This document shows, one piece after another, positions 1 to 34,923 of a stretch of 34,923 bases of DNA. Every line of letters starts with the position of its first letter. Positions within the stretch are counted from its first letter, which is position 1. The position numbers and the translations under genes were made by a program. Under the pieces are notes generated by a model that had not been told where the DNA came from, did no database searches, and worked only from the letters and a program-made list of their open reading frames with translations. This DNA is from a virus: UHGV virus genome UHGV-0335080. One strand, written 5' to 3'.

Positions 1-180
1 TGAACCGTGTTGATACATCAACTGCACCTGATATTGAGTGGCCTACGAACCCTGTCAGGGAGTAATCATTGGGATTATGCCGCAGCACGTCTTAAGCAAG
101 AACGTGCTGCGGTTGGATGGTGAACTTTCGATAGTGCGAGTATTGAATGATTTCCAGCCGTTACCGATTTTACGTGTTAA

Positions 181-429
181 TTAGTGAACAAACCACTCGT
201 CAGCAGACTCCCAGGTATCTTTCAGAGTTTCCTGAACAAAAGTTTTAGCTGAATCTTTATCGGCGGTGCGCGTAACAGAAAGGCCATCGTTGCTGGTAGC
301 TTTTACGATCACCTCTACATCGTCATAACGTTTACTGATGCGTCGGGTTAATTCTTCCTTTAACGCATCCACAGCACCGGTTGGCATTTTAGTCATTTTT
401 TCTTTGGCTATGCAGATTTCAATACGCAT
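181..429 (-). CDS. dinI: DinI-family SOS-response protein (RecA modulator), prophage-associated paralog
   Basis: 82-aa ORF; recalled E. coli DinI shares MRIE..IAK N-terminus, GA.DAL..EL.RRI and C-terminal TWESAD.WFV motifs; two LexA boxes immediately upstream. Confidence 0.85.
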
Positions 430-442
430 AAAAGTCCCTCTA

Positions 443-490
443 TACTGTGTTTGTATACAGTATCATTTTTAACTGTATGGATAAACAGTG
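443..490. promoter_or_regulatory. Two tandem LexA (SOS) boxes in the dinI-like promoter region
   Basis: TACTGTGTTTGTATACAGTA (443-462) and AACTGTATGGATAAACAGTG (471-490); both fit CTGT-N8-ACAG; located 14-60 nt upstream of the dinI-like start codon. Confidence 0.65.
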
Positions 491-515
491 TCAAGGGTGA
501 AGGAAAGTGATTTTT

Positions 516-584
516 TGGGGCATGCATGGGGCAAAAATATTTGTTGTGGGGCATTTTGGGGCATGATTGGGACACTTTGTTACA
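516..584. repeat. Array of TGGGGCA repeats between dinI-like gene and int 3' end; candidate integrase arm-type sites / att region
   Basis: TGGGGCA at 516, 527, 557, 567; 18-mer TGGGGCATGATTGGGACA (567-584) recurs as TGGGGCATCATTGGGACA at 767-784, inside the int 3' end. Confidence 0.4.
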
Positions 585-720
585 TATGAACTTTGCCGAT
601 TTTTATATGACATGGAAATACAACGCTTTGATTCTTCTAAATAAAAAACATGCTCTTGGGCGTTCTTTAGTGATTTTTAAAAATTCCGTATCACGCAGTT
701 AACATGACGGGTATTAAGGA

Positions 721-2034
721 TTAACTTACTGATTTTAATAAGCCTCTGGTGTCACTTTGGTGACTATGGGGCATCATTGGGACATAATCTGTCAGCTTCT
801 GATTCAGCATTGCGATCTGTTCTGCATTGCTGTCAGTCATCCATGCTCCGTATACATTGAATACCATCTGGGCACTTGCATGGCCCATCTGGCTGGCAAT
901 GAAGCTTGGGTTTGCTCCGGCAGATAATGACCAGCACGCATAAGTGTGTCGTGACTGGTATGCCTTTCGATGCCTGATCCCTGCACGCTTAATGGCTGTT
1001 TCCCATGAGTCACCTACAGAATCGACTTTGTAGACAAAACCTACCTGTTCGCTTTTTCTAACCACTTGAGGGTTAAACACGAAAGTACATTCATGGTTCA
1101 CTGAACGTCTATATTCACGTAGTTGCACCTTGATGTTGTACTGCTTACCCAGTCTTGTCATTTCAGCCTGATTTTTCAGGACACTGATAGCGGGCTGGAT
1201 AAGGTGCACAACCCTGTTTGTGCTTGCTTCAGTTTTCGGTAGAGTGAACTCACCAAGTTTCGTATAATTGCGCCTGATGGTAATTGTTCCTGCCTTCAGA
1301 TCGATATCTTCCCAGGCCAGGGAGACCAGTTCACCGTGACGCATTCCTGTGTACACAGCCAATGACCACAGGTTTTTCGTCTGCTGATGTCGGCAAGCAT
1401 CTATCAGGCGAATAAATTCGTCACGAGTTAGCGGATCTGGCTCTGCCCTGGCTCTTTTAAGAGGCTTAATTCCCTGGAAGGGATTTGCTTCTAAGTAACC
1501 GTGATCTGCAGCAAACTGAAACATTCCAGCGATTGTCGTCATGTAATAATTTACAGTAACGACGCTCCGTCCTTTTGCTGCTACTTTGTTTTTCGTTGAA
1601 TTCTGATACCCGGTAAGCAAATCTTTCCTGATATACAGCAATTCCTCTTTGGTTACCGATGACACCAGTCTACTGCCTCCAATTTTCGGAACCATCGTTC
1701 TTGCAACGGATTCATAGCGATTGAATGCATTTGCAGAGATTTCCATTCGTTTCAGATCCAGCCACTTTTCTTCAAGTTCCTTCACCGTAATTTCTTTTTT
1801 ACTTACCCCAAAAGTCTGAAGGTTGGGGGAGTCAGGGAACTGTGCAGCATAATCAAAGCTTCCTGTGCGGATGGCAAAACATACTGATGTCCGCAGTTCC
1901 CCGGCGATCTTCCTGTTCTTGGCAGTGTCAGGGACACCAAGATTTTCCCTGACACGTTTACCTTTAAAATTAAACCAGATGCGTAATGTGCCGCCGTGGT
2001 TTTCGACGCCTGTTGGATATTTGACTTTATCCAT
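721..2034 (-). CDS. int: Phage integrase, tyrosine site-specific recombinase
   Basis: 437-aa ORF; C-terminal catalytic region with R...HxxR...Y pattern (HSRHTYACW, VFNVYGAWM); GGAGGT RBS; adjacent excisionase; position at prophage end. Confidence 0.9.
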   Translation of the reverse strand: MDKVKYPTGVENHGGTLRIWFNFKGKRVRENLGVPDTAKNRKIAGELRTSVCFAIRTGSFDYAAQFPDSPNLQTFGVSKKEITVKELEEKWLDLKRMEISANAFNRYESVARTMVPKIGGSRLVSSVTKEELLYIRKDLLTGYQNSTKNKVAAKGRSVVTVNYYMTTIAGMFQFAADHGYLEANPFQGIKPLKRARAEPDPLTRDEFIRLIDACRHQQTKNLWSLAVYTGMRHGELVSLAWEDIDLKAGTITIRRNYTKLGEFTLPKTEASTNRVVHLIQPAISVLKNQAEMTRLGKQYNIKVQLREYRRSVNHECTFVFNPQVVRKSEQVGFVYKVDSVGDSWETAIKRAGIRHRKAYQSRHTYACWSLSAGANPSFIASQMGHASAQMVFNVYGAWMTDSNAEQIAMLNQKLTDYVPMMPHSHQSDTRGLLKSVS

Positions 2035-2089
2035 CGATACCTCCAGACGCCCAAGAGCGATACGAGCTTACATATTTCATGATATTAAA

Positions 2090-2326
2090 TCACCTGGGTT
2101 GTTTGTTTTTCATTGAGGCGACCCAGGCATCTATTGCTTTTCTGTTATACATACATTCACTGGAAGGCTTTGGATTACCGTCTGGTGATACGTGAATATA
2201 CTCTCTTCCAACCATCCAGCATTCTTTCCGGGCCCGAAGAATTGTGCCTGGTTTGAGCCCGGTAATTGCGATAAGAACGCTTTCACAAACCCATTCATTG
2301 GGAGCCAGTTGAATCACATTGCCCAT
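2090..2326 (-). CDS. xis: Excisionase-like protein
   Basis: 78-aa ORF immediately upstream of int on same strand; small basic protein resembling lambdoid prophage excisionase-like proteins; GAGGT RBS. Confidence 0.6.
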   Translation of the reverse strand: MGNVIQLAPNEWVCESVLIAITGLKPGTILRARKECWMVGREYIHVSPDGNPKPSSECMYNRKAIDAWVASMKNKQPR

Positions 2327-7101: not shown

Positions 7102-7605
7102 TCACCATTGGTATTGGTTCTTCCGTAGAAGAGCTTCGCGAGATAAGGGGCAAACTTGTTGAGATGCGTCATGGTGTTGCTGCTCCTCACTTTTTGGTTG
7201 CTCCGGAGGAGTAACCTCACCAGTTAACAGCCACATCGCATCGCAGCCAAGAATATTTGCCAGTGGGATAAGCATACTGATAGTTGGTTCATACTCTCCG
7301 CTCTCCCACTGGATGATAATTTCTTCATCGAGATCGAGCAGCCTGGCGAGTTCGGCGGTTGTTAAGCCGCAGGCTTCGCGTTGGGTGCGAAGACGGTTGT
7401 TGATTGCAGAATTTTTGTTCTGTAAAAGCATTGCTGACGATAGCTTTCTGGATATGCTATTTGTCATATCCCATGCCAGTCCTGCGCATGACTCTATATC
7501 GCTAGAGAGCGTAGCATCAGGTGTTGCTTTTGCTATTAGTGTAATGAGGCTGCCGAGGTTTTTCAGTTCTTCGAGACAGTCAAGAGTTGTAGCTTTATTG
7601 ATCAT
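7102..7605 (-). CDS. HTH (XRE-family) domain protein, 167 aa, first gene downstream of cI
   Basis: Central HTH motif (LRTQREACGLTTAELARLLDLDEEIIIQWESGEYEPTISMLIPLANILGCDAMWLLTGE); GAGGT RBS; start overlapped by operator-like inverted repeat. Confidence 0.7.
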   Translation of the reverse strand: MINKATTLDCLEELKNLGSLITLIAKATPDATLSSDIESCAGLAWDMTNSISRKLSSAMLLQNKNSAINNRLRTQREACGLTTAELARLLDLDEEIIIQWESGEYEPTISMLIPLANILGCDAMWLLTGEVTPPEQPKSEEQQHHDASQQVCPLSREALLRKNQYQW

Positions 7606-7708: not shown

Positions 7709-8365
7709 TCAGAAAATATCCCATCTGGCATCAACCACAACACCTACTATTTCGCAATCATTGTCCATTTCTATGATTGGATATTGTGGATTAAGGGGCT
7801 TTAGAAACGCCTTTCCCATGTCAGAAATATATTTTTTGAATGTTGCTTCATTGGTGGATTTTTTTCTGGCGATGACGTAACACCCTGAAAAAACTTCTTT
7901 ATCTGGGTTGACAAGGATCGACATTCCTTCAGGAAATGTTATTCCTACGGGCGAAGTCATTGAGTCTCCGTGCACTTCCAGCCAGAACCCCCTCTCACCA
8001 GCGTATTTTACAGAATGCCTCCAATTATCCTGATCATACATGTTGTAGTCATCACCAGAAGTTGCGAATAATCCTGCCTGAACCCAGTTAATTACAGGGT
8101 AAGAGTGTGCTGTGTCTCTCTGTGGGCAGCTCTTAACATTATTTTCCCAATGCTTATCTTTTTCATCTCCGTTCTGAAGCCACTGCGGTGAACACCGCAG
8201 TGCAGCTGCAACTTTAAAAAGGGTGTCACCGTTGAAACTTTTTGTAAGGCCTTGCTCGGCTTTACTTATTGCAACTCTGGTGACCCCAGCTTTTTTAGCC
8301 AACGCATCTTGTGTTAACCCAGCTTTTTGCCGTGCGTTGATGAGACGTTCACCTAAAGACTTCAT
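7709..8365 (-). CDS. cI: CI-like prophage repressor: N-terminal HTH plus C-terminal LexA-like S24 autopeptidase domain
   Basis: HTH_XRE motif (LTQDALAKKAGVTRVAISKAEQG); Ala-Gly candidate cleavage site (VQAGL); Ser in GDSM and downstream Lys (ARKK); GAGGAG RBS; track ORF trimmed to MKSLGERL. Confidence 0.9.
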   Translation of the reverse strand: MKSLGERLINARQKAGLTQDALAKKAGVTRVAISKAEQGLTKSFNGDTLFKVAAALRCSPQWLQNGDEKDKHWENNVKSCPQRDTAHSYPVINWVQAGLFATSGDDYNMYDQDNWRHSVKYAGERGFWLEVHGDSMTSPVGITFPEGMSILVNPDKEVFSGCYVIARKKSTNEATFKKYISDMGKAFLKPLNPQYPIIEMDNDCEIVGVVVDARWDIF

Positions 8366-8386
8366 TTTTCTTCTCCTCTCATGGCT

Positions 8387-8462
8387 GTTGATACTAAAGT
8401 AACAGAATTTCTTGATACTTTGGGTTCCTGTGGTTAACATCGTTGGATAACAAAGTATCTGG
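8387..8462. promoter_or_regulatory. Operator-like site cluster (OR-like) between cI and rightward genes, with candidate PR
   Basis: TGATACTAAAGTAAC (8391-8405), TGATACTTTGGGTTC (8414-8428), inverted AGATACTTTGTTATC (8446-8460); TTGATA-N17-TAACAT rightward promoter-like at 8412-8439. Confidence 0.45.
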
Positions 8463-8476
8463 TGTGAGACTAAAGA

Positions 8477-8704
8477 ATGACCCTTTATGAAATATTAAAA
8501 ATTCAATTTAAAACCAATGCCGCTATTGGTCGCAGGTTCCCAAAGAAAGGAAGGCCTCGTGGCAGTCAAGGTGTTGGAAAGTGGAAAACGCGAGGTGTTC
8601 CGGAGGATGTTGCCATTCTTTGTCATCTGGATCCGAGCATTCCATATACACACCCAAGTCTAGCGAATACAGAAGATGACAAGCCCACAGGAGACCAACA
8701 ATGA
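8477..8704 (+). CDS. Uncertain small basic ORF (75 aa) in the Cro position; may be noncoding
   Basis: Stop overlaps Rha start (ATGA), but weak RBS, no HTH and low-complexity basic composition; an alternative 48-codon ORF exists in another frame. Confidence 0.25.
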   Translation: MTLYEILKIQFKTNAAIGRRFPKKGRPRGSQGVGKWKTRGVPEDVAILCHLDPSIPYTHPSLANTEDDKPTGDQQ

Positions 8705-9408
8705 ACACCGCAATTTTTAACGGCAAAGCATCCATGACCAGCGTTGAGATCGCAGAGCTGGTGGGAAGCCGACCAGATAGTGTTAAGAGAACTATTGAAA
8801 CACTGGCTAAAAAGGGAATCATCCAATTTCCACAGACTGTGGAAATTGAGAATAAACAATCACTTGGGCCTCGCCGATTTTCTAGCGCGTATGTATTCGA
8901 AGGTGAACGAGGTAAGCGCGACAGCATCATTGTCGTCGCACAGCTCTGTCCTGAATTCACAGCTCGCCTGGTAGATCGCTGGCGCGAACTGGAAGAACAG
9001 ATCCGTAAGCCAATGAGCGAAATCGAAATGGTTGCCGCGATGGCTCTTGAAGCCGTTCGCCAACAGAAACGGATCACTCAGGTGGAAGAAAAAGTCAGCC
9101 ACGTTGCTGAAACAGTCGAGCAAATTAAAAAGGGCACTATTCGTGAGGGCTATGCCGGATATCGCCAACTGAAAGCAAAAACCGGTTTGTCAGATGATAA
9201 ATGCCGCAATCTGGTGAACGCCTATCAAATTCCTACAGACACACATGAGTTCATGACGCCGGACGGATTGTTGTCACGTCGCGCAATTGTTGCTGTGGAA
9301 CCGTTTATGGCTGCTTTTTATCGGGTTATGGAGGAAGCAGAACCGCGAGGGACTCGCTGGTATCACCCGAAAATGGGGTTATTTCAGGTTATTGGTTGGC
9401 AGCGGTGA
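8701..9408 (+). CDS. rha: Rha-family phage regulatory / antirepressor-like protein
   Basis: N-terminal motif MTSVEIAELVGSRPDSVKRTIETLAKKG typical of Phage_pRha; GGAGACC RBS. Confidence 0.7.
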   Translation: MNTAIFNGKASMTSVEIAELVGSRPDSVKRTIETLAKKGIIQFPQTVEIENKQSLGPRRFSSAYVFEGERGKRDSIIVVAQLCPEFTARLVDRWRELEEQIRKPMSEIEMVAAMALEAVRQQKRITQVEEKVSHVAETVEQIKKGTIREGYAGYRQLKAKTGLSDDKCRNLVNAYQIPTDTHEFMTPDGLLSRRAIVAVEPFMAAFYRVMEEAEPRGTRWYHPKMGLFQVIGWQR

Positions 9409-9435
9409 AAAAAAGCCGGGAGTAACCCGGCTCAC
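9409..9435 (-). terminator. Possible intrinsic terminator in minus-strand orientation
   Basis: GCCGGG-agtaa-CCCGGC hairpin (9415-9431) preceded on the plus strand by A7, i.e. followed by U7 on the minus strand. Confidence 0.3.
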
Positions 9436-9516
9436 TCAACATCAATAACGGGGAGCTGTTTCGCATAAAACGGCTCCGAAACATCCAAGAACAGTTCTAA
9501 AGATATCAGCAGCTAT

Positions 9517-10179
9517 ATGATCATTTCAAGACCAAATATTGATTCTGCAATTTCGGGACGTTACACTGTCTCCGCACCTTATAAAGCGGGTGCCGGGATT
9601 GGCGTCCTGAAATTGTCAACGGCGATGTATGACGCGCCAGCGTCTTTTTTATCGTCCGCATTTGCTCACATCCAGATTATGGTGGGCTGGGCGGGGGCAC
9701 CGAAAGGTGCGCCGGTCTCCGTTGACGCCGGTTACGCCAACCCCGTCCAGTTCACCACCAGTGAAATTGGCGTTTCCGGTGGTGGAAGTTTTTCACTGTC
9801 AACGGAGGCTGCCATCATGGCTACTGTCCTAACTTCCCCATTCCTAAAAATCGAAGTCGTCAACGGCAAGGCCGTTATTTTCTCCCTGCATGTTGCCTGC
9901 CATTTCAAGCGCATGCACCAGAACATCGTTGACAAAATCGAGTATCTGAACTGCTCACGCGAGTTTTTTACCCGCAATTTCATACCGGGTACTTATCACA
10001 TCTACGGTGACTCCCTGCGTGGTTATTACATCACCCTTGATGGTCTGATGATGCTTCAGCTTGGGTTAAGTCTGCGCACAATGCGGTACTACGAGAGCTG
10101 TATTGAAGCATTCCATGAGGCTGAAACCGTCCAGGGTCACTCCGCGTTCCGTCGTAATCAACGGGAGGTGCACCTATGA
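9517..10179 (+). CDS. Rha-domain protein with unrecognised Gly-rich N-terminal domain (220 aa)
   Basis: C-terminal Rha-like segment (KIEVVNGKAVIFSLHVACHFKRMHQNIVDKIEYL...); N-terminal about 100 aa paralogous to next gene. Confidence 0.65.
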   Translation: MIISRPNIDSAISGRYTVSAPYKAGAGIGVLKLSTAMYDAPASFLSSAFAHIQIMVGWAGAPKGAPVSVDAGYANPVQFTTSEIGVSGGGSFSLSTEAAIMATVLTSPFLKIEVVNGKAVIFSLHVACHFKRMHQNIVDKIEYLNCSREFFTRNFIPGTYHIYGDSLRGYYITLDGLMMLQLGLSLRTMRYYESCIEAFHEAETVQGHSAFRRNQREVHL

Positions 10180-11027
10180 TCCGCCACCAGCATATTGATT
10201 CTGCAATTCCGGGACGTTACACTGCTCAGGCACCTTATAAAGCGGGTGCCGGGCGTGGAAACCCGAAATTCAATATAGAGCACAACCGCGCTCATGCGGT
10301 TTTTTCGTGTCATGAGCATCGTTACACCCAAATTATGGTGGGGCGTGCAGGGCCAACTTCGGTTGGGCCGGGTTCTATGTTGACCGGTATTTCCACCCCT
10401 GTACGTCTCACCACCTATATGGTCGTGGAAAGCCTTGGTGGTGAGTTCATTGAATTCAACATAGGGGCTGTCACCATGACTACTCTCCCAACCCAATCTC
10501 ACCCTGAAATCACGATTATCAATGGTCGCGTTGTCACCACATCTCTTGCAGTAGCTAATTACTTTACTAAACGGCATGAGCGGGTTTTAGATAGAATTAG
10601 AAACCTCGAATGTTCCGCTGAATTTACTGAACACAATTTTGTGTTAAGTGAATACACCGACGCATCAGGCCGCAAACTCCCTTGTTACCAAATCACCCGC
10701 GACGGTTTTGCGTTTCTTGCCATGGGCTTCACTGGTAAACGTGCTGCCCAGTTCAAAGAGGCATACATCAACGCCTTTAACCTGATGGAGAAGAGTTTAT
10801 CAGGTGCCGATGCGTCTGATATGTCAGCTGTCGCACGAAACGCCAGAGGCGTATACCTGCATTTGCGTGAAATCCATCAAATCTGGACAAGCCAGCTTTA
10901 TCCAATGCTTAAGGCCGTTGAATCTCCGCTGGCTAGCAAACTGTACGACCGTGTTGGTGATGCTGTTTTTGGCGCTGCACTTGTTGATTCCAGGCTGAAT
11001 GGTTCTGACAAGGAGGTTCGCCCATGA
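10176..11027 (+). CDS. Rha-domain protein, paralog of upstream gene (283 aa)
   Basis: Rha-like segment (ITIINGRVVTTSLAVANYFTKRHERVLDRIRNLECSAEF...YQITRDGFAFLAMGFTGKRAAQFKEAYINAF); shared N-terminal domain; ATGA-coupled start with GGAGGTG RBS. Confidence 0.7.
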   Translation: MIRHQHIDSAIPGRYTAQAPYKAGAGRGNPKFNIEHNRAHAVFSCHEHRYTQIMVGRAGPTSVGPGSMLTGISTPVRLTTYMVVESLGGEFIEFNIGAVTMTTLPTQSHPEITIINGRVVTTSLAVANYFTKRHERVLDRIRNLECSAEFTEHNFVLSEYTDASGRKLPCYQITRDGFAFLAMGFTGKRAAQFKEAYINAFNLMEKSLSGADASDMSAVARNARGVYLHLREIHQIWTSQLYPMLKAVESPLASKLYDRVGDAVFGAALVDSRLNGSDKEVRP

Positions 11028-29388: not shown

Positions 29389-29475
29389 TAACCGAGTTAT
29401 CACAATCACTGCCCGAAAGGGCTTTTTTTATGCCTGAAAAACAGCCCCACAGGGGCTGTCCGGAGAAACAGCATT

Positions 29476-32748: not shown

Positions 32749-34923
32749 TTTTGCCGATCTGACAGCTGTTCTTACACTGGATTCAACCCGTTTTTCTGAA
32801 GAGGCTGCACGGGTAAAGAAAGAACTGGGTGAAACCAGTGACCTTGCGGATTTGATGGCCGGGCGTGTCAGCCAGTCTTTTAAGAAACAGGCCGCTGCTG
32901 TTGAGCAGGGGCTGAGCCGTCAGGCGCTGGCTGCACAAAAAGCCGGGATTTCCGTCGGGCAGTATAAAGCGGCCATGCGAACCCTGCCCGCACAGTTTAC
33001 GGATATCGCCACGCAGCTTGCCGGTGGTCAGAATCCCTGGCTGATCCTGCTGCAACAGGGCGGTCAGGTGAAGGACTCCTTCGGCGGGATGATCCCCATG
33101 TTCAGGGGGCTTGCCGGTGCGATCACCCTGCCGATGGTCGGGGTCACCTCGCTGGCGGTGGCGACAGGTGCGCTGGTGTACGCCTGGTACCAGGGAGATT
33201 CCACGCTTTCAGCGTTTAATAAAACCCTGGTTCTTTCCGGTAATCAGTCCGGACTGACTGCCGATCGTATGCTGACTCTCTCAAGAGCCGGGCAGGCAGC
33301 AGGGCTGACGTTTAACCAGGCGAGAGAGTCACTGGCAGCCCTGGTGAATGCCGGTGTGCGTGGTGGTGAACAGTTTGATGCCATCAACCAGAGTGTCGCG
33401 CGTTTTGCGTCTGCATCCGGTGTGGAGGTGGATAAAGTCGCTGAAGCCTTCGGGAAGCTGACCACTGACCCGACGTCGGGACTGATGGCGATGGCGCGCC
33501 AGTTCCGTAACGTGACGGCAGAGCAGATTGCGTATGTTGCACAGCTGCAGCGTTCCGGAGACGAGGCCGGGGCATTGCAGGCGGCGAACGATATCGCCAC
33601 GAAAGGCTTTGATGAGCAGACCCGTCGCCTGAAAGAAAACATGGGAACACTGGAGACCTGGGCGGATAAAACAGGGAAGGCATTCAAATCGATGTGGGAT
33701 GCCATTCTGGATATCGGTCGTCCTGAATCCTCAGCGGATATGCTCGCCAGTGCGCAGAAGGCATTTGATGAGGCGGATAAAAAATGGCAGTGGTACCAGA
33801 GCCGGAGCCAGCGCCGGGGAAAGACCTCCTCTTTTCGTGCCAACCTTCAGGGCGCATGGGATGACCGGGAAAATGCCCGTCTGGGTCTGGCAGCGGCCAC
33901 GCTGCAGTCGGATATGGAAAAAGCCGGTGAACTGGCGGCAAGGGACCGGGCTGAGCGTGAGGCGTCACAGCTGAAGTATACCGGAGAGGCGCAGAAGGCG
34001 TATGAGCGCCTGCTGACGCCACTGGAGAAATATACCGCCCGGCAGGAAGAGCTGAATAAGGCCCTGAAAGACGGGAAAATCCTGCAGGCGGATTACAACA
34101 CGCTGATGGCGTCGGCAAAAAAGGATTATGAGTCGACGCAGAAAAAGCCGTCCGGTGTGAAGGTGTCTGCCGGTGAGCGCCAGGAAGACCAGGCGCATGC
34201 AGCCCTGCTGGCGCTTGAAACTGAGCTCAGGACGCTGGAGAAGCACAGCGGTGCGAATGAAAAAATCAGCCAGCAGCGCCGTGATTTATGGAAAGCGGAA
34301 AATCAGTATGTGGTCCTGAAAGAGGCCGCCACGAAACGGCAGTTATCTGAGCAGGAAAAATCCCTGCTGGCTCATGAGAAAGAGACGCTGGAGTACAAAC
34401 GCCAGCTGGCTGAGCTGGGAGACAAGATTGAACACCAGAAGCGGCTGAATGAGCTGGCACAGCAGGCGGCGCGGTTTGAACAGCAGCAGAGCGCGAAGCA
34501 GGCGGCAATCAGCGCAAAAGCCCGCGGCCTCACTGACCGTCAGGCGCAGCGGGAGTCGGAAGAGCAGCGCCTTCGTGAGGTGTACGGTGATAATCCGGCT
34601 GCGCTGGCGAAGGCCACATCTGCACTGAAGAACACCTGGTCTGCGGAGGAGCAGCTTCGTGGAAGCTGGATGGCCGGGATGAAGTCCGGCTGGGGCGAGT
34701 GGGCGGAAAGTGCGACGGACAGTTTTTCGCAGGTTAAAAACGCGGCCACGCAGACCTTTGACGGTATTGCACAGAATATGGCAGCGATGCTGACCGGCAG
34801 CGAACAGAACTGGCGCAGCTTCACCCGTTCCGTGCTGTCCATGATGACAGAAATTCTGCTTAAGCAGGCAATGGTGGGGATTGTCGGGAGTATCGGCAGC
34901 GCCATTGGCGGGGCTGTTGGTGG
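32738..34923 (+). CDS. H: Tail tape measure protein H (3' partial, runs off window end)
   Basis: Open frame from ATG 32738 to window end with no stop; MAGNFADLTAVLTLDSTRF... with long helical repeats; not in ORF track because unterminated. Confidence 0.85.
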   Translation, partial: MAGNFADLTAVLTLDSTRFSEEAARVKKELGETSDLADLMAGRVSQSFKKQAAAVEQGLSRQALAAQKAGISVGQYKAAMRTLPAQFTDIATQLAGGQNPWLILLQQGGQVKDSFGGMIPMFRGLAGAITLPMVGVTSLAVATGALVYAWYQGDSTLSAFNKTLVLSGNQSGLTADRMLTLSRAGQAAGLTFNQARESLAALVNAGVRGGEQFDAINQSVARFASASGVEVDKVAEAFGKLTTDPTSGLMAMARQFRNVTAEQIAYVAQLQRSGDEAGALQAANDIATKGFDEQTRRLKENMGTLETWADKTGKAFKSMWDAILDIGRPESSADMLASAQKAFDEADKKWQWYQSRSQRRGKTSSFRANLQGAWDDRENARLGLAAATLQSDMEKAGELAARDRAEREASQLKYTGEAQKAYERLLTPLEKYTARQEELNKALKDGKILQADYNTLMASAKKDYESTQKKPSGVKVSAGERQEDQAHAALLALETELRTLEKHSGANEKISQQRRDLWKAENQYVVLKEAATKRQLSEQEKSLLAHEKETLEYKRQLAELGDKIEHQKRLNELAQQAARFEQQQSAKQAAISAKARGLTDRQAQRESEEQRLREVYGDNPAALAKATSALKNTWSAEEQLRGSWMAGMKSGWGEWAESATDSFSQVKNAATQTFDGIAQNMAAMLTGSEQNWRSFTRSVLSMMTEILLKQAMVGIVGSIGSAIGGAVG

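Follow-up and report, generated by a model that had tools for sequence, protein, structure and literature searches.

What does a dinI-like gene placed under two LexA boxes contribute to a temperate phage, and does it belong to the phage at all? The question is raised by the first lines of the stretch of DNA analysed here as a whole (34,923 nucleotides, UHGV virus genome UHGV-0335080, called the window below), in which the following gene is found.

181 to 429, minus strand: dinI-like coding sequence, 82 amino acids plus stop, ATG start (open reading frame, profile and structure matches)

The product matched the Pfam family PF06183 (DinI) over profile positions 1-63 of 63, with an E-value of 1.1e-19 and 70.9 bits for a cutoff of 24.2, and the solved E. 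coli DinI (1GHH/7YWA) was a full-length match of the 82-residue protein (E=3.7e-13), the identity between the phage protein and E. coli DinI being 49%. The AlphaFold model of the phage protein (pLDDT 75.8) presents a beta-alpha-beta-beta-alpha succession, with strands at residues 2-8, 39-45 and 51-55 and helices at 19-34 and 59-80, and its comparison with the PDB gave 1GHH and 7YWA as the top and sole significant matches (probability 1.00, TM 0.75). According to the cryo-EM structure of the RecA-DinI complex, residues L13, L21, W71, W77 and F78 of E. coli DinI form a pocket for F203 of RecA, and a patch composed of E24, E69 and D76 faces K232, R243 and K245 of RecA (PMC9926225). In the alignment, the phage protein has at these positions a hydrophobic pocket made of M15, L23, W73, W79 and F80 and an acidic patch made of E26, D71 and E78, which amounts to five identical and three conservative residues for a total of eight contact positions. 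Purifying selection on the protein is clear. The gene is a diverged homologue of dinI, as an earlier note on this DNA had recognised from the letters alone, and its RecA-binding surface is predicted to be intact. The phage and E. coli proteins share their Pfam family, fold and length class as well as control by LexA (predicted for the phage gene), and they differ by a 2-residue insertion after Lys9 in the phage protein and by their isoelectric point (5.4 vs 4.7, the phage protein being less acidic). The two genes also differ by the number of operators, two in the phage cassette versus one at E. coli dinI, and by their location, beside attP for the former and beside pyrC for the latter.

Family membership alone would also fit a host chromosomal dinI lying outside the prophage, and the decision between the two origins depends on the position of the attachment site.

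692 to 702: att core CACGCAGTTAA (attP), the phage boundary in lysogens, from attL/attR comparison

When compared with the yecE prophage of E. coli UPEC957C, the window follows attR up to position 702 and attL from position 696 (from 692 with one mismatch). This three-way comparison places the crossover at 692-702, the window following attR to the left of it and attL to the right, and an 11-bp attL/attR is annotated at the matching place in the phiP27 record. Since the crossover is located there, the window carries attP and the dinI-like gene, found 262 bp from the att core, is phage DNA. On the integrase side, window 692-2100 shares 99.9% identity with the attL-int-xis end of prophages inserted in yecE, 99.6% with the start of the Escherichia phage PhiR49_2 record and 94.7% with the start of phiP27. 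On the other side, window 1-693 matches the opposite end of PhiR49_2 with 99.9% identity, and the DinI gene is the last one annotated there. In UPEC957C, window 1-700 is present at 100% identity approximately 49 kb from the int end, in the order tail-fibre genes, DinI-like gene, truncated yecE fragment and yecD, and the gene occupies in the lysogen the last position before attR in yecE. The host origin was therefore rejected, the host-phage junction lying beyond the gene. It is further opposed by the presence of the gene in virion-derived phage genomes and by the features of the chromosomal copy, which neighbours pyrC, shows a single box at -37 and does not exceed 49% identity, and we consider this origin extremely improbable. 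The att mapping asked for by the earlier note thus puts the gene inside the phage, in an att-proximal position. That note had spoken of a prophage end, whereas the window shows attP in the arrangement dinI-attP-int; its source is an excised, circularly permuted phage genome or a tandem array, and a simple prophage end is ruled out.

The rest of the window is lambdoid and contains int, xis, early-left genes, cI, a cro-like gene, three Rha/Ash genes and replication genes, and it also encodes Q, a sialate esterase, lysis genes, terminase, and head and tail genes. Its backbone resembles that of the Stx2a phages integrating into yecE, and neither stx genes nor tRNA genes are present in the window. 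The dinI-like cassette is inserted between the tail-fibre genes and attP and its transcription is opposed to that of the late genes. From these comparisons, the phage appears to be temperate and lambda-like, related to PhiR49_2 and phiP27, with yecE as its probable site of integration. The repressor gene is found at the following position.

7709 to 8440, minus strand: CI repressor with a LexA-like self-cleavage domain (HTH_3 and Peptidase_S24; QAG, GDSM and FKK motifs)

The LexA-like autocleavage domain attributed to the repressor in the earlier note was recovered here through the Peptidase_S24 match and the three motifs, and CI is thus of the LexA-like self-cleaving type and is presumed to be a client of RecA*. 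The same note had described the dinI-like gene as next to CI, and a distance of 7.3 kb actually separates them.

The control region of the dinI-like gene comprises the following elements. The score of each box is its number of matches to the 20-nt SOS-box consensus TACTG(TA)5CAGTA, obtained by counting the mismatches.

489 to 494, minus strand: -35 hexamer TTGACA, from the promoter scan; the similarity of the cassette stops just upstream
471 to 490, AACTGTATGGATAAACAGTG, minus-strand reading CACTGTTTATCCATACAGTT: distal LexA box, 15/20, filling the spacer between -35 and -10
465 to 471, minus strand: -10 element, AAAAAT at 470-465 or TAAAAA at 471-466
443 to 462, TACTGTGTTTGTATACAGTA, minus-strand reading TACTGTATACAAACACAGTA: proximal LexA box, 17/20, over the predicted transcription start
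435 to 441, minus strand: AGAGGGA, a Shine-Dalgarno-like sequence 5 nt ahead of the ATG, maintained across the aligned upstream regions

Both boxes contain a perfect CTGT-N8-ACAG palindrome upstream of the gene, at 445-460 and 473-488. This motif occurs four times in the whole 34.9-kb window for 0.40 expected, and none of 100 shuffles had four or more. The two other matches (29456-29471 and 34835-34850) have G+C-rich spacers, lie within late genes and look like chance occurrences. When sites with at least 13 matches out of 20 and an intact CTG/CAG were searched in the whole window, solely the two boxes of the dinI promoter were obtained; in particular, no SOS box reaching 13/20 that might control an antirepressor (the three Rha/Ash genes, 8701-11027) was found elsewhere in the window. 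The two boxes are separated by 8 bp as 20-mers and by 12 bp as 16-mers, with 28 bp from centre to centre. The two CTGT-N8-ACAG boxes reported earlier in this promoter are hence present, and the spacing of 8 bp given for them holds for the 20-mers 443-462 and 471-490. The promoter scan gave 10 of 12 matches, with a perfect TTGACA and an 18-nt spacer. The order on the minus strand is TTGACA (494-489), distal box, A/T-rich -10, proximal box, AGAGGGA and ATG, and the proximal box begins 2-3 bp past the -10 element. The same promoter is annotated in phage mEp460, in which the LexA boxes are not annotated. The gene is preceded by a strong sigma-70 promoter occluded by two good predicted LexA operators.

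To place this layout among related genes, homologues were sampled at 160 loci (80 from viral contigs and 80 from genomes representative of species), with 120 bp of upstream sequence for each of them. Homologues with 56-100% protein identity mostly have two CTG-N10-CAG boxes, at approximately -59 and -31 from the ATG, whereas those with 51% identity or less have one box, at approximately -37. The succession TTGACA, box, -10, box, Shine-Dalgarno and ATG is shared by most homologues over the whole range of 56-100% protein identity, in Escherichia, Pantoea, Erwinia, Mixta and Trabulsiella, while the spacers of the boxes and all the sequence upstream of the -35 diverge in the upstream alignment. 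Because the layout is kept where spacers and flanks differ, selection on both operators and a boundary of the cassette at the -35 are indicated. Pfam scans of the sampled neighbours located the two-box genes at prophage ends, with a host gene (prfC, rcsD or PBP) or an integrase on the promoter side and, where identifiable, a phage or conversion gene downstream. The one-box genes are of two kinds, a chromosomal one beside pyrC, 45-46% identical (loci L160 and L163), and a prophage one beside the lambdoid early-region genes DUF968 and DUF1367 (loci L107 and L120). These data suggest that two operators are specific to an att-proximal phage clade, and that one operator characterises the chromosomal dinI and the prophage type of the lambdoid early region. 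No description of the two-operator design of the att-proximal clade was found in the literature. At the level of individual phages, the match with mEp460 stops at window position 498, from which a different integrase begins, and the cassette is found beside different integrases in the virion-derived genomes of mEp460, SKA5 and Lys8385Vzw.

The other end of the cassette is marked by a potential secondary structure.

79 to 116, minus strand: 3'-terminal hairpin of the cassette, 14-bp stem, z=-3.3 (MFE fold), terminator-like, with no U-run in the window copy

No open reading frame of at least 20 amino acids starts between the dinI stop and this hairpin on the dinI strand, and the dinI-like gene is for this reason considered as monocistronic. 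The homology of the cassette among its relatives also ends at the hairpin, and changes in the stem are compensated in relatives (CAGTACG/CGTACTG at locus L089 vs CAGCACG/CGTGCTG in the window). The hairpin is followed by a T-run in 14 of 29 distinct variants, at the place where the window has CATAATCC. The end of the transcript is uncertain because the hairpin of the window copy has no U-run. The hairpin folds equally well on both strands (summed MFE of -502 for the sense and -521 for the antisense strand), and no bias indicates the strand on which it acts. On the plus strand, positions 80-111 correspond to the last 32 positions of the Rfam family CssrB, with 36 bits, below the gathering threshold, and the Rfam search gave nothing beyond this partial match.

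DinI-like sequences under the control of LexA have been described in several temperate phages. [quoted passage not shown] The Gifsy dinI is located 1.3 kb downstream of the replication genes and is described with a single LexA site at the head of the operon, in contrast with the window, where the gene is monocistronic, has two boxes and is found beside attP in a phage with a cleavable CI. The Tum protein of coliphage 186 is a LexA-controlled fusion of an antirepressor with DinI (PMC3121763); like the split tum genes of PSP3 and Fels-2, it provides a DinI-like sequence under LexA control in a temperate phage, and it differs from the protein of the window, which has no antirepressor moiety and belongs to a lambdoid rather than P2-like phage.

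These systems raise the hypothesis that the gene of the window is the first of a LexA-controlled antirepressor operon of the Gifsy dinI-gfoA-irsA type, or a split form of the 186 Tum, since LexA-controlled dinI homologues do head such operons in Salmonella prophages (PMC3121763). This type of operon was rejected at the window locus: between dinI and the hairpin, the dinI strand offers no plausible open reading frame, none of the relatives has a cassette extending past the hairpin, and the repressor has its own S24 cleavage domain. Among the sampled homologues, it is the single-box prophage genes, and not the gene of the window, that have Gifsy-like neighbours of the early region (DUF968, DUF1367), a position which recalls that of the Gifsy dinI relative to the replication genes. 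We judge this hypothesis to be very unlikely. Closer to the present arrangement are the DinI-like genes of phiKO2 and of the Serratia phage phiOS31, which are opposed to the tail-fibre genes, downstream of which they lie, and have a LexA box upstream as in the window (PMC7556043); the phiKO2 gene is reported to be LexA-regulated in a work cited by PMC7556043. Both are described with one box, and that of phiOS31 with a translationally coupled downstream open reading frame that is absent in the window.

The cassette is also widespread in E. coli. The 315-bp segment containing the gene and its promoter was detected in 1,678 of 5,426 complete E. coli genomes (at least 80% coverage), with a maximum of 7 places in one genome. 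The protein shares 100% identity with gp21 of mEp460 (named DinI-like protein) and with those of SKA5 and PhiR55_1, and it is 92-95% identical to the products of right-end genes of VT1-Sakai and of Stx1a, Stx2a and Stx2c phages among those listed. The gp21 gene of mEp460 and the genes named DinI-like family protein or RecA filament binding protein DinI (VT1-Sakai H0001, Stx1a/2a/2c, SKA5, 2H10) belong to the same cassette at the att-proximal end; the non-identical DinI genes of lambdoid and Stx phages share 92-99% protein identity, and the mEp460-type cassettes differ from that of the window by the flanking integrase and att, with otherwise essentially no difference. In E. coli CFT073, the expression of the dinI-like gene c0943 falls along with that of sulA, umuD, recN and dinI in transcriptomes (PMC2817434), and the explicit proposal has been made that the dinI of an Stx phage would restrain induction if it were expressed (PMC8456039). 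The cassette is real, common and already annotated, and the gene, its predicted LexA control and the hypothesis of a limitation of induction are already on record. A simple experiment combining deletion and cleavage is, to all appearances, missing from the literature for phages of the CI type.

Taken together, the position of the gene inside the phage and beside attP, its occluded promoter and its monocistronic layout are in agreement with a self-contained SOS cassette carried by a temperate lambda-like phage, which we propose as the best overall explanation and consider probable in view of the sequence comparisons. In a healthy lysogen, LexA would keep the dinI-like gene tightly shut. Upon DNA damage, the formation of RecA filaments would lead to the cleavage of LexA and to the production of the DinI-like protein, which would then occupy the groove of RecA, i.e., the site used by LexA, UmuD and the CI-type repressors. 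The result could be a delayed brake, with stabilised filaments and a raised damage threshold for the cleavage of the phage's own S24-type CI, of the repressors of co-resident prophages and of UmuD. This step is the most speculative part of the mechanism, and we put it forward tentatively, as a possibility that we would rather doubt than expect. A delayed brake is favoured because LexA must fall first and because CI is a slow client of RecA. A tuning of the RecA-mediated cleavage of CI appears structurally reasonable, since DinI and lambda CI use the same groove determinants of RecA (PMC9926225), but the sign of any effect on this cleavage is uncertain, because the main activity ascribed to E. 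coli DinI is the stabilisation of filaments (PMC9926225). The effect of a single copy may moreover be redundant, because many E. coli strains hold several copies in addition to the chromosomal dinI.

An effect of the opposite sign could also be considered, in which the phage DinI would stabilise the RecA filaments, prolong the RecA* state and commit the lysogen to induction once the damage is serious. The lengthening and stabilisation of RecA filaments by DinI (PMC9926225, and Lusetti 2004 as cited there) would be in favour of such an acceleration, as would the two strong predicted operators, which suggest an expression restricted to a substantial depletion of LexA. Nevertheless, DinI sits on the elements of the groove needed by lambda CI, and its stoichiometric binding should exclude CI; an acceleration of induction thus seems unlikely to us. 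The absence of an effect of the Gifsy deletions tends to weaken all the readings centred on induction, the brake included, but it is not decisive for a phage of the CI/S24 type, because the Gifsy repressors are not cleaved by RecA.

The Gifsy deletions, which left induction unaltered (PMC3121763), are on the other hand in favour of a third role, that of a cargo of lysogenic conversion (a 'moron'), for which the additional SOS-induced DinI would mainly help the host or harm rivals and would have little part in the induction of its own phage. [quoted passage not shown] The autonomous layout of promoter, gene and hairpin, oriented against the late operon, and the shuffling of the cassette among phages with unrelated integrases and tail genes speak for such a cargo. 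As regards its delimitation, the promoter and the breaks in homology are clear, the hairpin is present with no U-run, and the intrinsic terminator scan called none. The genes associated with the emergence of quinolone-resistance mutations in E. coli included one of DinI-like type located in a viral region (PMC10575684), which would also be in favour of this role. Against it, the gene would be silent in unstressed lysogens, and any benefit would be confined to the SOS response, while the prophage itself is being induced. We regard a role as cargo as conceivable, albeit somewhat unlikely; it overlaps with those of a brake and of an accelerator and is compatible with the self-contained SOS cassette that we prefer.

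Should the threshold or the timing of RecA-dependent repressor cleavage indeed be set by the phage DinI, the cassette would represent a common and unrecognised control knob on prophage induction. Its scope would include the Stx-converting phages, for which induction means toxin release, and it would offer a route for one prophage to influence its neighbours and the SOS mutagenesis of the host. The presence of two operators in the att-proximal clade instead of one provides a concrete handle on the question of the phenotype.

The last feature of the cassette is located between the stop codon and the hairpin.

119 to 160, minus strand: conserved 42-nt island of the dinI-like 3'UTR, with an invariant 21-mer at 129-149

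This island is better conserved than the coding sequence. Its identity among the homologues is of 83-88%, where the synonymous third positions have 49-59% and the first 20 bases of the UTR 45-50%. The 21-mer is unique in the window. In 70 of the 74 close homologues it occurs 32 nt past the stop codon, a position that it also has in 5 homologues of 69-74% identity. A comparable location is known for the Klebsiella dinI mRNA, the 3' end of which yields the small RNA DinR (PMC10907235). Both are mRNAs of the dinI family with a conserved stretch just upstream of a terminal hairpin, and the island of the window differs from DinR in having no sequence similarity with it, no complementarity to ftsZ and no U-tail.

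On this basis, the cassette might have two outputs, the protein and the island (119-160) as the seed of a regulatory RNA produced from the 3' end upon SOS induction, a counterpart of DinR with a different target, although we find this quite improbable. In a more radical form, which we rate as equally improbable, the RNA would be the main selected product and the protein would be secondary. The Klebsiella precedent, the conservation of the island above the synonymous sites, its position directly upstream of a hairpin having a U-run in about half of the variants, and its maintenance in a decayed relic of E. coli K-12 argue for an RNA. On the other hand, the protein is clearly under purifying selection, the window copy of the hairpin has no U-run, and the sole stem predicted by RNAalifold in the 3'UTR is weak, with zero compensatory change and hence no covariation. 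The pairing of the island with the start region of E. coli ftsZ is not special (29% of the shuffles were as good), nothing convincing was obtained with the start regions of the window open reading frames, and no Rfam family matches the island.

An RNA seed, if true, would account for the longer persistence of the island than of the coding sequence, both in diverged homologues and in the relic found in almost every E. coli between ecpE and ykgJ. In K-12 DH1, this relic is promoterless and frameshifted, and it retains the latter half of the gene together with the UTR, the hairpin and a tail rich in T. A 71-nt query made of the UTR matched 5,383 of 5,426 E. coli genomes (at least 80% coverage), typically with 93% identity and in unannotated DNA like that of the K-12 site.

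Downstream of the dinI-like gene, conservation among the homologues is concentrated in a short stretch of the 3'UTR, directly followed on the same strand by the terminal hairpin:

119-160, minus strand, conserved 3'UTR island of 42 nt with an invariant core at 129-149

Among homologues with 69-74% protein identity, the island is 83-88% identical, versus 70-75% at the nucleotide level for the coding sequence and 49-59% at synonymous sites. A similar picture is given by the E. coli K-12 DH1 chromosome, where a frameshifted and promoterless relic of the dinI-like cassette lies in the ecpE-ykgJ interval (2384-2620 of the fetched locus L167). The relic retains the latter half of the gene together with its 3'UTR, hairpin and a T-rich tail. 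The coding portion of this relic is decayed and its UTR island almost intact. When a 71-nt UTR query was used, a match, typically of 93% identity and in unannotated DNA, was observed in 5,383 of the 5,426 complete E. coli genomes. [quoted passage not shown]

Two plus-strand features overlap this region. At 80-111 (plus strand), the hairpin is identical to Rfam RF02799 (CssrB, a Shigella sRNA) over the final 32 positions of that family, with a score of 36 bits, below the gathering threshold. The match suggests that CssrB terminates at this phage hairpin, in the orientation of the tail-fibre genes. The second feature is an open reading frame:

38-184, plus strand, 48-aa ORF (RefSeq hypothetical protein WP_001300215.1) spanning the hairpin and the UTR island and overlapping the dinI stop

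This ORF is probably spurious, because the homology of the relatives stops at the hairpin and the variation within the island is not codon-like.

Arm-type integrase binding sites are probably represented by seven direct TGGGGCA / TGGGACA motifs, located at 513-574 and 764-784 on both sides of the att core and grouped as three double units and one single, with one unit contained in the int 3' end. The integrase carries an Arm-DNA-bind_2 domain, and related motifs are found upstream of dinI in other fetched loci (L061-L065 and L085). Positions 1-2100 contain attP in the order dinI-attP-int, and the dinI side and the int side are adjacent in none of the 5,426 complete E. coli genomes; therefore the window derives either from a circularly permuted phage genome that was excised or came from virions, or from a tandem lysogen.

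The phage is an stx-negative relative of the yecE-integrating Stx2a phages: its backbone is similar to theirs, with Q followed by a sialate O-acetylesterase gene, and the gap after Q (790 bp, 16736-17525) is insufficient for stx2AB. No tRNA genes were found in the window. Around cI, further genes are present:

7102-7605, minus strand, second HTH_3 protein of 167 aa, without peptidase domain, immediately 3' of cI on the same strand
8701-11027, a row of three adjacent paralogues carrying Rha domains, Ash domains or both, preceded directly by a small cro-like ORF (8477-8704)

Members of the Rha/Ash family are frequently annotated as antirepressors or regulators; no LexA box was found at these three genes. 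Two more CTGT-N8-ACAG matches (29456-29471 and 34835-34850) are probably due to chance, lying inside late genes, with G+C-rich spacers and fewer than 13 of 20 positions agreeing with the SOS-box consensus.

Enterobacterial-type dinI-like genes with SOS boxes were also observed in assemblies labelled Chryseobacterium, Saccharibacteria MAG and Vagococcus (loci L089, L092 and L128). A PBP5-type carboxypeptidase gene flanks the L089 copy, and these contigs look like contaminating or mis-binned sequences.
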